Assembly: GCA_000004985.1 (NCBI GenBank)
Contig: GG738869.1
Direction: 5' to 3' (one strand)
DNA from: Naegleria gruberi
Lineage: Eukaryota
Length of the DNA stretch: 64,000 nt
The notes under the pieces were generated by a model. The model worked only from the letters and a program-made list of their open reading frames with translations. It had not been told where the DNA came from and did not search any database. Positions within the stretch are counted from its first letter, which is position 1. Each line of letters starts with the position of its first letter. Position numbers and translations under genes: made by a program. Below are positions 2,671-7,297 of this stretch, piece after piece.

Positions 2671-4725
2671 TTAATCAGATAAATCTTCAAAGCATCTGCC
2701 TTCCTTTCTCATCAAATCAATGTGTGAATCAGCAACTCTGTCATCAACACCCTCAATATTCTTAATGATATCCTTGATGACATTGTAAGCTCTTGTTCCA
2801 AAACCTGAAACACCTCCACACAAATATAAATTTCCTTTTGATCTACTGAGCATTTGATAAACCTTTTCCTTGTTTTCATAAATGGCATCAGCAATCATCT
2901 TTCTGTCAGTTCCAGAGTAAGCAAAATGAGATTCAGAAATGAGACCATCCTTAACAGCTTGTTCAATTTCCTTCTTGTAAATAACTTCTTCAGGTCCTCT
3001 AACACCATAGAACAAAATTGAAGGACCGAATTTGATGTTTGGATTTCTCATTTGTTGAACTCTTCTTTCATCAATAAATCCTCTGAATGGAGCAATACCT
3101 GTACCACCAGCAATACAAACGATTGGTGTTTCAGGATTTTCTGGAAGTCTGAATGAAGAAGTTCTGATAACAACAGGACATGCAATAGATGGTTTGCACT
3201 CTGACAAGTAGTTGGAACACAATCCAAAGAATGTCTTGGTATTATCAATTGGCTGTACAAGTGGACCGTAGGTAATTCTCAAAATTTTTCCTTCTCCTCT
3301 CTTCTTTCTTTCTTCATTTTCTAATCTAGATGAAGAAATTGAATAGTATCTTGGTTGATTCTTTGGTAAGATACCAATGAGATCTTGCCATGTCACCTTA
3401 ATGGATGGGAATTTCTCTAACATATCTACAATATTTAACATTTTGTTCTTGACTTCAGTCAAGTATTTTTCACTCTTCCAAGATTCCAATGTAGCTTTTT
3501 CTTCGGCATTGGTTGCCTTGTCTGCCAAGAAACCTAATAAAGAAGGAGAAACGACACCATTCAAATCAAAGAATTGAGACATGGCCTGATATAAAGTAAT
3601 TGGGCTATCTCTAGTGGCAATAAATGGTGGCAATTCAATACTACATGTTGGTGTTTCAAGAGTAAAGATAATTTCCTCCATAGGCAAATCCAATTTCAAG
3701 AAACTTTCCAATCTTTTAACAAGAGATGATGGATTGGTTGGGAAAATGCAAATATGGTCACCAGTCTCATAATCTATTGGAGTTCCTTCAATATCAAACT
3801 CAATCTCAAGACGTAATCTATTGGATTCTGGACATAAATTCTTTACGGATTGAATCTTCAATGGGAATGGGTTCTTTGGTGAAACTGGTGAGCTGGCATC
3901 ATAGGAACGAACAAATTGTCTTAACTTGTCTCTATATTTGGCTTTATCTAGAAGACGAAAAAAATGCTTGCCATTTGTTGTCACACCTTCTCCCATTTGA
4001 CTTGTTTCACTTTGAGATGGTACTTGGCATGAAGATGCAGTAGATGAATTGGATGTTTCATTTTCCTTTTGTTTCAAGAATTCAATAAATTCATTCTTCC
4101 AATTTTCAAAATCAGTTTCAATACCTTCTTCACCACCATCGTCTCCTTCACCTCTCTTGAATTGTAAATCACTTCCCAAATCCTTTAAACGTTGTTCCAT
4201 TCTTTTACCAACAGCTTGATATCTTTCAGGGAAGTTGGCAGAATTTCCCAAACCAAAAATTGCATAATTTGGTGCATTGTTTTTGAAATCCAAACTCTTA
4301 GTATTGTCACTCATAAAAAATTCATAAAATGGTTTAGCATTGTCAGTTGGTTGACCTTCACCGTAGTTTGACATGATAAATAATACAATATTATACAAAT
4401 CATTTTTTTGTAAGCCAAATGACAAGGCCCTTTCTGGTTCAATATCACTCAAATCAACAACTTTAACACTTGACAAGAATGATGGATTTTTCTCCATCAA
4501 TTCGCTCTTCAAACCTTCAGCAAACATTTGTGCAGTTCCCGTTTGTGACCCATAACAAATTAACAAGTTTGTCTTGGACATGTCGACAAGACTTGCATGG
4601 AACTGTCTCATACATGCTGCTTTAAAAACACTTGTATTGGTATTCATTCTATGTTGACCAGAGCATGCATTGCGAAGTAATACACTGCAAGCATTCATTT
4701 TCAGTTTATTCATCATCATCTTCAC
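2671..4725 (-). CDS. Diflavin (FMN/FAD/NADPH) oxidoreductase of the cytochrome P450 reductase / sulfite reductase flavoprotein family, with an N-terminal presequence-like extension.
   Basis: Flavodoxin FMN motif LLICYGSQTGTAQMFAEGL. FAD-binding RYYSISSS. NADPH-binding CIAGGTGIAPFRGFI, then ...LYLCGG. The N-terminal ~50 aa are K/R/S-rich with no acidic residues (MKMMMNKLKMNACSVLLRNACSGQHRMNTNT...), which resembles a mitochondrial presequence. Single exon. Confidence 0.8.
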   Translation of the reverse strand: MKMMMNKLKMNACSVLLRNACSGQHRMNTNTSVFKAACMRQFHASLVDMSKTNLLICYGSQTGTAQMFAEGLKSELMEKNPSFLSSVKVVDLSDIEPERALSFGLQKNDLYNIVLFIMSNYGEGQPTDNAKPFYEFFMSDNTKSLDFKNNAPNYAIFGLGNSANFPERYQAVGKRMEQRLKDLGSDLQFKRGEGDDGGEEGIETDFENWKNEFIEFLKQKENETSNSSTASSCQVPSQSETSQMGEGVTTNGKHFFRLLDKAKYRDKLRQFVRSYDASSPVSPKNPFPLKIQSVKNLCPESNRLRLEIEFDIEGTPIDYETGDHICIFPTNPSSLVKRLESFLKLDLPMEEIIFTLETPTCSIELPPFIATRDSPITLYQAMSQFFDLNGVVSPSLLGFLADKATNAEEKATLESWKSEKYLTEVKNKMLNIVDMLEKFPSIKVTWQDLIGILPKNQPRYYSISSSRLENEERKKRGEGKILRITYGPLVQPIDNTKTFFGLCSNYLSECKPSIACPVVIRTSSFRLPENPETPIVCIAGGTGIAPFRGFIDERRVQQMRNPNIKFGPSILFYGVRGPEEVIYKKEIEQAVKDGLISESHFAYSGTDRKMIADAIYENKEKVYQMLSRSKGNLYLCGGVSGFGTRAYNVIKDIIKNIEGVDDRVADSHIDLMRKEGRCFEDLSD

Positions 4726-5359: not shown

Positions 5360-7297
5360 ATGATCAGACAATCTGCTTCTAAGCTTTTCTCTAGAGTTGC
5401 TTCCAAATCCATGCAAGTTAATGCTGGAAAGAATTTGGCTGCCTGTTCCATGATCAAGATGAATCATCAAACAACCACTCAAGCTAGAATGAATTTCTCA
5501 CAACAATACAATATGAATAGATCTGATAAGATGTTCTGTTTCCAATGTGAACAAACACAAAATGGTACTGGTTGCACAACTGTTGGTGTTTGCGGTAAGA
5601 CACCATCAGTTGCTGCATTGCAAGATTTAACCATTTATCAAACTCGTCAATTGTGTGCTTTGGCTACTTTGGCCAAGAGACAAGGATCTGTTGTTCCTTC
5701 ATTGATGGAAAAGGTTGATGACTTTGTTTTGAGAGCCATGTATAGTACTTTGACTAATGTCAATTTTGATGAACTCAGATTTGTCGAATTTTTGAAGGAA
5801 GGTTCTGAATTGACTCAACAAGTCAAGAAGGAAATGTTAGGTGGAAAGATTCCACAAGAATTCTCTGAATTGCTCACTGTCACTGAAACTGATGCTCAAT
5901 TCGATGCCATCTTGAGTCAAGCTACTTCTGCCACAGATGAAGCTACTGGAAAATTGATTGATATGGGTAAATCTGTTGGTGTTCAACCACATCACAAACA
6001 TTATGGAGCTGATACTAATGCTCTCCGTGAATTGCTCCAATATGGTCTCAAGGGTTTGTGTGCTTATACTAAGGAAGCTTCTCTCTTGGGTAAGAATGAT
6101 GCTGCTGTTGTCAATGAATTCATTAGAACTGCCATGTGTACTTTGGCTGGTGTTTCACCTGATGGTAAGGTTGACCCATACAATGCTAATGATATCATTG
6201 GTATGGCATTGAAGTGTGGTGAAGTCAACGTTAGAACTATGCAATTGATGGACGAAGGTGCTTTTGAACGTTTTGGTCAAATGGCTCCAAACAATGTTAG
6301 AACTACTCCACTCCCAGGTAAATCAATCTTGGTTTCTGGTCACGATATGGGTGATTTGTTGGCCATTTTGAAGCAAACTGAAGGAAAGGGTATCAATGTT
6401 TACACTCACGGTGAATTGTTGCCAGCTCATGGTTATCCTGAGCTCAGAAAGTTCAAACACTTAGTTGGTAACTATGGTGGTGCTTGGCAACAACAAAAGA
6501 TTGAATTCTCCAACTTTAAGGGTGCTATTGTCATGACTACTAACTGTATCATTGAACCAAGAAAGCAATATAAGGATAGAATCTTCACTACCTCAGTTGT
6601 TGGTTGGCCAGGTGTCACTCACATTAAGAATAGAGATTTCTCTGCTGTTATTGAAAAGGCTTTGGCTACAGAAGGTTTCCCAGAATCATTTGCCAATGAA
6701 AAGGTTGAACATGTCACAACTGGTTTCGGTCATCGTACAGTTTTGAGTCTTGCTGATGTTATTGTTAATGCTGTTAAGAGAGGTGATATTAAGAGATTCC
6801 ATCTTATTGGTGGTTGTGATGGTACTGAAGGTGAAAGATCATACTATAAGAATATTGCTACATCCCTTCCAAAGGATAACGTTATCCTCACTTTAGGTTG
6901 TGCCAAGTACAGATTCAACAAGATTGACTTTGGTACTATTACTACTCAAGATCCAAAGACTAATTCTGATGTTGCCTTGCCAAGATTGTTGGATGTTGGT
7001 CAATGTAACGATGCTTATGGAGCTGTAGTTATTGCTAGTGCTTTGGCTGAAGCTTTCGGTACTAAGGATCTCAACCAATTGCCACTCAACTTTGTTATTT
7101 CTTGGTTCGAACAAAAGGCTGTTGTTATTTTCTTGACAATGCTCCACCTTGGTTTGAAGAATGTCAGAATTGGTCCAAACTTGCCTGCCTTTATTCCTCC
7201 ATCCACTCTCCAATTCCTCGTTGAAACCTTCAAGTTACATCCAATCAATGCTAAGGATCCTGTTGCTGATATGGAAATGATGCAAAAGGGACTTTAA
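5360..7297 (+). CDS. hcp: Hybrid-cluster protein (prismane / hydroxylamine reductase, Hcp) with a ~55-aa N-terminal extension.
   Basis: Collinear with bacterial Hcp from MFCFQCEQTQNGTGCT onward (the N-terminal Cys cluster). Diagnostic blocks are INVYTHGELLPAHGYPELRKFKHLVGNYGGAWQQQ, IVMTTNCII, HLIGGCDGTEGERSYY, LTLGCAKYRFNK and LDVGQCNDAY. The extension (MIRQSASKLFSRVASKSMQVNAGKNLAACSMIKMNHQTTTQARMNFSQQYNMNRSDK) is basic and hydroxylated, with no acidic residues. Confidence 0.9.
   Translation: MIRQSASKLFSRVASKSMQVNAGKNLAACSMIKMNHQTTTQARMNFSQQYNMNRSDKMFCFQCEQTQNGTGCTTVGVCGKTPSVAALQDLTIYQTRQLCALATLAKRQGSVVPSLMEKVDDFVLRAMYSTLTNVNFDELRFVEFLKEGSELTQQVKKEMLGGKIPQEFSELLTVTETDAQFDAILSQATSATDEATGKLIDMGKSVGVQPHHKHYGADTNALRELLQYGLKGLCAYTKEASLLGKNDAAVVNEFIRTAMCTLAGVSPDGKVDPYNANDIIGMALKCGEVNVRTMQLMDEGAFERFGQMAPNNVRTTPLPGKSILVSGHDMGDLLAILKQTEGKGINVYTHGELLPAHGYPELRKFKHLVGNYGGAWQQQKIEFSNFKGAIVMTTNCIIEPRKQYKDRIFTTSVVGWPGVTHIKNRDFSAVIEKALATEGFPESFANEKVEHVTTGFGHRTVLSLADVIVNAVKRGDIKRFHLIGGCDGTEGERSYYKNIATSLPKDNVILTLGCAKYRFNKIDFGTITTQDPKTNSDVALPRLLDVGQCNDAYGAVVIASALAEAFGTKDLNQLPLNFVISWFEQKAVVIFLTMLHLGLKNVRIGPNLPAFIPPSTLQFLVETFKLHPINAKDPVADMEMMQKGL

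Follow-up and report, generated by a model that had tools for sequence, protein, structure and literature searches.

Presequence-like N-terminal extensions on a head-to-head hybrid cluster protein and diflavin reductase gene pair of Naegleria gruberi

Two divergent genes and their protein bodies

A stretch of 64,000 nucleotides of AT-rich Naegleria gruberi DNA (contig GG738869.1, assembly GCA_000004985.1), called the window below, contains two neighbouring, divergently oriented genes for a hybrid cluster protein (Hcp) and a diflavin reductase. Both predicted proteins begin with a presequence-like extension that the public gene models lack, and both are listed in a published mitochondrial proteome of this organism. 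The features of the locus are collected in Table 1.

The first gene is identified by its sequence as encoding a bacterial-type hybrid cluster protein (Prismane, hydroxylamine reductase family) with class I cysteine spacing. The Pfam Prismane profile matched residues 58 to 628 with 482 bits over profile positions 1-504 of 513, and matches to solved structures were obtained with E. coli Hcp (7DE4, E = 2e-139) and D. vulgaris Hcp (1E2U, E = 4e-131), residue 58 being aligned with residue 1 of both. The start of the profile and these alignments set the extension at 57 residues, in agreement with the initial annotation, which had counted about 55 and had described them as free of Asp and Glu; the extension indeed has no Glu, but it has one Asp (D56), along with 5 Lys and 4 Arg. 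The N-terminal cysteines follow the class I pattern Cx2Cx8Cx5C (C60-x2-C63-x8-C72-x5-C78, in MFCFQCEQTQNGTGCTTVGVCGK), and the class II Hcp of E. coli required 3+1 inserted residues in the alignment over this motif. The motifs GHD, THGE, TNC, GGCDG, GCAKYR, GQCNDAY and EQKA, which we take to be the hybrid-cluster ligand motifs according to the D. vulgaris structure, are all present and aligned with 7DE4. From its internal Met58 onward, the protein is identical to the part printed of XP_002676958.1 of N. gruberi NEG-M (MFCFQCEQT..., 65.2 kDa).

The reductase gene runs from 4719 to 2671 on the opposite strand, where the first ATG is at 4719 and an in-frame TAA lies two codons upstream. Translation from this ATG gives 682 amino acids starting with MMMNKLKMN..., i.e. 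MMMNKLKMNACSV.... An extension of about 50 residues had been annotated initially from a start reading 'MK...', which proved to be a GTG permitted by the tool that called the open reading frames (ORFs); the extension itself stands, with 46 residues ahead of the internal Met47 (4581-4579), among them 3 Lys, 3 Arg, 2 His, 1 Asp and no Glu. Pfam analysis revealed the domain order Flavodoxin_1 (PF00258), FAD_binding_1 (PF00667) and NAD_binding_1 (PF00175). In the numbering from the ATG, Flavodoxin_1 begins at residue 54, and residues 44-47 are the first to align with the soluble domain of cytochrome P450 reductases (CPRs) of known structure, so that 46-51 residues lie ahead of the flavodoxin fold. 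The CPRs are also the closest solved relatives (E about 5e-64). The window sequence matches the printed XP_002677035.1 (MSKTNLLICYG..., 71.9 kDa) over the roughly 450 residues shown. By these two matches, the window comes from NEG-M or from a strain nearly identical to it. An exact look-up of the full-length proteins of the window in the assembly collection returned no match.

Compared to microsomal CPR (rat 1AMO, human 3QE2), the reductase has the same domain order, is about 30% identical across its entire soluble portion, and retains the FMN, FAD and Cys630/Asp675-equivalent motifs. Unlike CPR, it carries a basic extension in place of the membrane anchor. The highest Kyte-Doolittle average over any 19 residues is 0.45 in this extension (0.26 in that of Hcp), compared to 1.7-2.9 in canonical CPRs, whose sequences end in DVW(S), and the earlier statement that a CPR-type anchor is absent was thus borne out. 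The C-terminus reads ...FEDLSD and not ...DVWS, CGDA is replaced by CGGV and GPGTG by GGTG, and AFSRDQ..KRYV by AYSGTD..KMIA. Consequently, the FAD-stacking Trp (rat Trp677) is missing from the C-terminal GRCFEDLSD, and the Arg597 and Tyr604 of the NADPH 2'-phosphate site have no counterpart where AYSGTD-RKMIAD aligns with AFSREQAHKVYVQH. As the FAD-stacking Trp and the 2'-phosphate Arg and Tyr are missing, the sequence suggests, judged also by CPR mutants in Trp677, that coenzyme use of the Naegleria reductase may be altered, possibly toward NADH, which would fit an enzyme of the mitochondrial matrix.

An exhaustive HMMER search with the reductase retrieved sequences above 50% identity from Heterolobosea only, and the next relatives were 27-38% identical. 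In many of the latter, the C-terminus R-x-x-E-D-[LVI]-[AS]-D replaces ...DVWS. We call these anchor-less enzymes EDLAD-type, a grouping defined in this analysis and not a curated family. They also have CGG..FG in place of CGDA..MA, GG.G in place of GPGTG, an FMN domain with a two-residue insertion, and Arg-rich N-termini without a membrane segment; homologues with a DVW(S) C-terminus carry a hydrophobic anchor at the N-terminus. These features are common to the Naegleria reductase and to P0121, P0123, P0125, P0126, P0243, P0131, P0245, P0198, P0248, P0315-P0328, P0366 and P0368. A profile built for the type gave 609-767 bits for members compared to at most 523 bits for CPRs, with the exception of the truncated model P0122 (526 bits). 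The Naegleria enzyme belongs to this subfamily, in which the membrane anchor and the Trp that stacks on FAD in CPR are both missing, and it is probably the eukaryotic stand-in for bacterial Hcr, the NADH oxidoreductase of E. coli Hcp. At the 3' end of the N. lovaniensis reductase gene (L002, about 5231-5300), the frame reads ...GRCLRIWLIK..., compared to ...GRCFEDLAD in its close relative L004, which looks like a 1-nt assembly indel or a real frameshift at the gene end.

Table 1. Features of the Hcp/reductase locus and of two reference genes in the window
Feature	Position	Strand	Length, composition or domains
Diflavin reductase body including stop codon, C-terminus ...GRCFEDLSD	2671..4581	-	PF00258, PF00667, PF00175
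R38-Q-F-H41, candidate R-3-type processing motif in reductase extension	4597..4608	-	
Reductase N-terminal extension, MMMNKLKMNACSVLLRNACSGQHRMNTNTSVFKAACMRQFHASLVD, proposed presequence	4582..4719	-	46 codons
Divergent intergenic region between upstream ATGs, presumed shared promoter region	4720..5359	.	640 bp, GC 32.5%
Hcp ORF	5360-7297	+	645 aa
Hcp N-terminal extension, MIRQSASKLFSRVASKSMQVNAGKNLAACSMIKMNHQTTTQARMNFSQQYNMNRSDK, proposed matrix-targeting presequence	5360..5530	+	57 codons
R43-M-N-F-S47, candidate processing-peptidase site (R-2/R-3 type) near end of Hcp extension	5486..5500	+	
Hcp catalytic body including stop codon	5531..7297	+	PF03063
NDUFS6, N-terminus comparable to the extensions	26992-26591	-	
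COQ5, N-terminus comparable to the extensions	from 32795	+	

Coding status and presequence character of the extensions

The extensions were compared with those of four relatives: a metagenome contig resembling Naegleria (L001), N. lovaniensis (L002), a genome close to the latter that is known from a sequencing run (L004), and Willaertia magna, in which the Hcp (L003) and reductase (L010) loci are on different contigs. An upstream ATG followed by an open frame was present in all five Hcp loci and all five reductase loci of Naegleria and Willaertia, and the comparison with the Hcp N-termini of relatives that had been proposed initially thus came out in favour of an extension. Equivalent Hcp extensions were found in P0002, P0003, P0004, P0009 and L004, and equivalent reductase extensions in L001, L002, L004 and L010. 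In the P0009 fragment, which is 85% identical overall, 51 of the 57 residues of the Hcp extension are identical.

The nucleotide comparison of L002 with L004 revealed that the Hcp extension is 89% identical, with a ratio of nonsynonymous to synonymous substitution rates (dN/dS) of 0.16 (binomial p 6e-4), and the mature part 92% identical with a dN/dS of 0.086. For the reductase, the corresponding values were 70% and 0.31 (binomial p 7e-3) in the extension and 85% and 0.088 in the mature part, while intergenic DNA of the two genomes was only 66% identical. The lengths of the extensions differ in whole-codon steps (201 and 201 nt for Hcp, 180 and 171 nt for the reductase). A strain contig 98.9% identical to the window (L005) had 9 differences in 315 intergenic nt compared to one synonymous change in the 171 nt of the Hcp extension. 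Because the frames are open in all relatives examined, dN/dS is below 1 and identity exceeds that of intergenic DNA, the extensions are coding sequence: both are real and conserved, and purifying selection acts on them at the protein level. The strain contig itself is a 2503-nt environmental metagenome contig of the European Nucleotide Archive that corresponds to window 5045-7412, and a 1-nt homopolymer insertion right behind its MFCF codons has resulted in a truncated gene call of 545 amino acids (P0001).

A reading in which the extensions are untranslated 5' leaders, open by chance, with translation starting at Met58 and Met47 and no presequence, was weighed against these results. The RefSeq models XP_002676958.1 and XP_002677035.1 lack the extensions and start at exactly these internal Mets, the annotators of W. 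magna also chose internal starts, both Mets lie precisely at the domain boundary, and the ancestral Met is retained in all 32 extended Hcp homologues. All of these points count against translation from the upstream ATGs. However, the chance of an open frame, calculated from intergenic base composition, is 0.011 per genome for 57 codons and 0.026 for 46 codons, yet the frames are open in every relative examined. The whole-codon length steps, the dN/dS values and the excess of Hcp-extension over intergenic identity between species also speak against a leader, which would moreover leave the mitochondrial fractionation described below without explanation. This reading is therefore highly improbable, and the sequence comparisons suggest that the upstream ATGs would be used in vivo in both genes.

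The W. magna reductase model P0123 starts still further in, at MFSESF; in its locus (L010, 3830-4000), an upstream in-frame ATG yields MQKSFIKLLSKRSATISNTKCNSLLFKRINCNKRFLTKPIHEPN ahead of the flavodoxin fold. The retained Met, at the ancestral bacterial start M-F-C-x-Q-C-E-Q (window 5531-5533 for Met58), suggests either a structural role beside the first Cys ligand or alternative initiation with possible dual localisation.

Both extensions carry a net positive charge and hardly any acidic residues, and they contain much Ser, Thr and Asn and no transmembrane segment, as is typical of presequences. The first 40 residues of each have a net charge of +6 and no acidic residue. Among the 25 ORFs of at least 200 amino acids in the window, only Hcp, the reductase and COQ5 combined a net charge of +5 or more with no more than one acidic residue over this length. 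The shorter NDUFS6 has +5 and no acidic residue, and the presequences of these two canonical mitochondrial proteins are, as first annotated, comparable to the extensions in net charge and acid counts. The amphiphilicity of the extensions is less telling: the maximum hydrophobic moment over 18 residues is 0.45 for Hcp and 0.38 for the reductase (0.58 for NDUFS6 and 0.43 for COQ5), compared to a window median of 0.40. This crude measure does not set the extensions apart from background and lends no support to their reading as targeting signals.

Candidate Arg-x-(x)-aromatic processing motifs lie near the ends of both extensions (RMNF↓S in Hcp, RQF↓H in the reductase), comparable to IRSF↓SSS in the NDUFS6 of the window, although by our own estimate about one in ten sequences as long as the extensions would contain so short a motif by chance. 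Counterparts of the Hcp motif read RMYS in L001, RAMFHAS in N. lovaniensis and RAMFQAA in L004. The aligned column of five heterolobosean reductases reads RQFH, RGFK, RLFH, RLFH and KRFL, and the relatives also show RLFHS and RGFKS. Judged from these residues, the presequences would be cleaved at the R-x-(x)-F motifs. Over its first twelve residues (MIRQSASKLFSR), Hcp is similar to an N. gruberi MGM101 homologue (MIRQAASSLLSK), which TargetP predicts to be mitochondrial. Extensions of at least 20 amino acids occur in 32 of the 120 best Hcp homologues, and most of these are basic and poor in acidic residues.

Evidence for a mitochondrial location

The localisation of both proteins can be read from published data. 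Horvathova et al. 2021 (PMC8134430, Supplementary Data 2 Sheet 1), using fractionation on OptiPrep gradients, reported that 946 of 4198 detected proteins co-fractionate with 376 mitochondrial markers, and Hcp and the reductase both appear, side by side, in this list of 946. Hcp was detected with 59 unique peptides, 79% coverage and log2 label-free quantification (LFQ) values of 29.7, 31.6 and 33.7 across the fractions, and the reductase with 41 unique peptides, 55% coverage and values of 25.2, 27.3 and 29.3. The two profiles are parallel, with a roughly 4-fold stepwise rise to the densest fraction, and Hcp is about 20-fold more intense. The import of both proteins into the mitochondrion that had been suggested from the sequence is thereby supported.

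In the same study, PSORT II, MultiLoc and TargetP, applied to the truncated models, placed both proteins in the cytosol, the nucleus or 'other' (PMC8134430). The predictors missed the mitochondrion because translation in the RefSeq models is taken to start at the internal Met, which leaves out the extensions. The presequence-like extensions are the missing explanation for the mismatch between proteome and predictors, and nobody had previously tied the published fractionation data to these N-termini. Two other destinations were considered and rejected. Neither C-terminus (MQKGL in Hcp, EDLSD in the reductase) carries a peroxisomal targeting signal of type 1, and the proteins belong to the mitochondrial and not the peroxisomal proteome cluster; likewise, neither has the hydrophobic signal or anchor expected for the endoplasmic reticulum, and both are again in the mitochondrial cluster.

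A precedent against import comes from N. gruberi itself. Like Hcp, HydA and HydE are 'anaerobic' Fe-S enzymes with long extensions resembling mitochondrial targeting sequences and are predicted to be mitochondrial, but they were found to be cytosolic by immunofluorescence, activity and fractionation, and their N-termini failed to drive mitochondrial import in yeast (Tsaousis et al. 2014, PMC4007538). The [FeFe]-hydrogenase HydA (83.8 kDa) is, however, also in the mitochondrial list of 2021, with the same enrichment profile (PMC8134430). The two accounts of HydA, exclusively cytosolic in one and in the mitochondrial list in the other, are in conflict, and at least one data set is imperfect. For this reason we leave some room for Hcp and the reductase not being matrix proteins, which is rather unlikely. 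Unlike HydA and HydE, they have shorter extensions, and the mitochondrial proteome cluster is common to Hcp, the reductase and HydA.

The precedent gives substance to an explanation in which the extensions are translated but do not function as import signals, the proteins being cytosolic or peripheral and their listing in the proteome a matter of co-purification. The presence of HydA in the list, which may then include non-matrix proteins, and the undistinctive amphiphilicity of the extensions point in the same direction. Against it, both proteins rise stepwise with the mitochondrial density fractions, as the markers do, the extensions are under purifying selection, a basic, acid-free character is kept in about 30 eukaryotic Hcps, and the Acanthamoeba enzyme has been shown to be mitochondrial. 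Taken together, non-functional extensions appear distinctly improbable. A mitochondrial localisation of Hcp and the reductase is very probable, and within the organelle the matrix would be a more plausible site than another sub-compartment.

The Acanthamoeba castellanii HCP was placed in a fully aerobic mitochondrion by tagging and microscopy together with mass spectrometry and is induced by anoxia (PMC13632651, 2026). According to the description in PMC13632651, companion work of the same consortium extends predicted mitochondrial HCP to diverse eukaryotes. Both the Acanthamoeba and the Naegleria protein combine a bacterial-type Hcp, an N-terminal targeting extension (proposed in Naegleria) and a mitochondrion with complete aerobic oxidative phosphorylation. 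They differ in that the Naegleria localisation comes from fractionation proteomics and sequence and not from microscopy, and in that the Naegleria protein is abundant in aerobically grown cells (PMC8134430) whereas the Acanthamoeba enzyme is anoxia-induced. The main text of PMC13632651 names no redox partner, the terms 'diflavin', 'P450 reductase' and 'flavodoxin' having no occurrence in it. The initial picture of an O2-sensitive hybrid-cluster enzyme in an aerobic organelle agrees with this case, and by analogy with Acanthamoeba, an Hcp in a fully aerobic organelle is in principle no longer a paradox.

Linkage of the two genes and a possible redox module

Genomic context analyses revealed that the divergent Hcp/reductase pair is kept in L001, L002 and L004, with spacers of 590-615 bp and presequence-like N-termini on both proteins. 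A search for promoter elements found no shared sequence of at least 10 nt among the intergenic regions of the window and these three relatives. The flanks of the pair differ: the relatives have an ion-channel gene and RPS8e directly behind Hcp, and in the window this block is 16 kb off, at 23-27 kb. Within one genus, the pairing could be plain synteny.

The arrangement was also found in two unrelated eukaryotic contigs. In L007 (GC 61%, Hcp 52% identical), an intron-split diflavin reductase, the first exon of which encodes MMRCASRTRSTHLRPLSANRSTPRRFYSAAP..., is head-to-head with Hcp, and both have presequence-like N-termini. A 40-nt GT..AG intron lies directly behind the presequence exon of this reductase (L007 2536-3418), and a further Ala/Arg-rich ORF (MFASRAAACCPATVAARPAAARP...) precedes the called start of the Hcp, whose model is perhaps incomplete. 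In L034 (GC 45%, with introns), an Hcp with a 68-amino-acid extension (...KINRSFSTQ...) is head-to-head with a reductase extended by roughly 100 amino acids (...HNARFYTSTS...). L034 was the sole EDLAD-type locus among the 80 recovered by a metagenome scan, and Hcp adjoins it.

Several observations weigh against a general linkage. The two genes are unlinked in W. magna, no reductase was found near Hcp in the eukaryotic loci L008 and L009 (Closterium), and the L007 reductase ends in DVFA and is not clearly of the EDLAD subtype. In addition, the Hcps of the three lineages with the pair did not group together in a rough neighbour-joining tree, whose deep nodes are unsupported and whose 'no extension' labels are unreliable, as many gene models are truncated; this tree is compatible both with an ancient linkage of the pair and with repeated assembly or transfer. 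Nevertheless, by our own estimate, chance would bring two given gene families side by side in a genome with a probability of about 1e-3 or lower, and because the pair recurs in three lineages, far beyond chance, a functional link between the Hcp and reductase genes is quite probable. The parallel fraction profiles of the two proteins and the Arg-rich N-termini that stand in for the membrane anchor in the reductase subfamily also speak for a partnership. Direct electron transfer from the reductase to Hcp, which we infer from this link, is the favoured reading with fair but lesser confidence.

The hcp-hcr operon of E. coli encodes a class II Hcp and Hcr, an NADH oxidoreductase with FAD and a [2Fe-2S] cluster. 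As in bacterial Hcp-Hcr, the Naegleria Hcp gene adjoins the gene of a pyridine-nucleotide-dependent flavoprotein, and the proposed chemistry on nitric oxide (NO) or hydroxylamine is alike. Unlike Hcr, which is an FNR-like Fe-S flavoprotein, the Naegleria partner is an FMN/FAD diflavin reductase with three domains. The cysteine spacing of the Naegleria Hcp is of class I, its gene and that of the reductase point in opposite directions and yield separate mRNAs instead of forming an operon, and both proteins bear predicted organelle presequences. The Naegleria pair may function in an analogous way, but it does not belong to the Hcp-Hcr system.

In the model proposed here, translation would begin at the upstream ATG of each gene (5360 for Hcp, 4719 for the reductase), and the extensions of 57 and roughly 46 amino acids would be cleavable matrix-targeting presequences, through which a class I Hcp and an anchor-less CPR-like diflavin reductase would be imported into the mitochondrion of N. 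gruberi. The Hcp clusters would be loaded there by the iron-sulfur assembly machinery, and the two proteins would form a redox module in which electrons pass from NAD(P)H to FAD and FMN in the reductase, then to the [4Fe-4S] and hybrid clusters of Hcp, for the reduction of NO or hydroxylamine, either of which would be the physiological substrate. The reductase would take the role of Hcr, and the head-to-head arrangement would presumably be kept for co-expression. As a whole, the chain from upstream ATGs through import by cleavable presequences to the reductase as electron donor of Hcp is moderately probable. The wider proposal of a eukaryotic two-gene mitochondrial Hcp system, in which a class I Hcp is paired with a dedicated, anchor-less and Trp-less diflavin reductase that took the place of bacterial Hcr or ferredoxin, and in which the head-to-head cassette was kept in or moved between lineages, is about evenly poised between true and false.

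Diflavin reductases are promiscuous electron donors. Both proteins might be mitochondrial by virtue of their presequences while the reductase serves other acceptors, such as a haem protein of the organelle or Fe-S assembly, and their adjacency would then reflect no more than shared regulation or inherited synteny. The unlinked genes of W. magna, the reductase-free Hcp loci L008 and L009, and the many EDLAD-type reductases beyond those tied to Hcp fit this alternative. It is less easily reconciled with the identical divergent pairing in three separate lineages, with the Hcp adjoining the only EDLAD-type metagenome locus that has flanks, or with the low chance of adjacency, and we consider other acceptors unlikely. 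Literature searches for Hcp linked to a diflavin reductase, or to cytochrome P450 reductase in mitochondria, retrieved nothing relevant, and those for NirK in Naegleria nothing usable.

In the surroundings of the pair, the Hcp stop codon is followed after 170 bp by a tRNA-Val(AAC) gene (7469-7542, minus strand), and a tRNA-Leu(CAA) gene was found at 15171-15251 (plus strand). Window 7713-11019 (plus strand) holds genes or exons, separated by short introns, in which units of the type 'SxELRxDRE(F/I/L)V' are repeated and which by eye resemble DUF4116; this run sits between Hcp and the ion-channel/RPS8e/NDUFS6 block that abuts Hcp in N. lovaniensis. On the other side of the pair, the product of a gene at 1-2371 (plus strand) comprises a region of NHL repeats, a Cys-rich EGF-like region, a transmembrane segment and a protein kinase; the gene has a short intron near 1903-1950 and extends beyond the window start.

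These analyses correct two N. gruberi gene models and account for the 'cytosolic' predictor scores of two abundant proteins of the mitochondrial fraction. They also provide a concrete candidate redox partner for a eukaryotic Hcp, derived from the conservation of the gene pair in three distant lineages. For O2-respiring protists, a mitochondrial Hcp was documented only recently, in Acanthamoeba, and the reductase would supply a candidate electron donor. It belongs to a subfamily of diflavin reductases that is widespread, bears presequences and has an altered nicotinamide and FAD-stacking site; the literature searched contains no description of its function. If the proposal is true, the electron donor of mitochondrial Hcp would be named and a new functional class of CPR relatives defined. 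The finding bears on how much 'anaerobic' biochemistry aerobic mitochondria retain, a question in which the Naegleria hydrogenase shows that sequence-based calls can fail.

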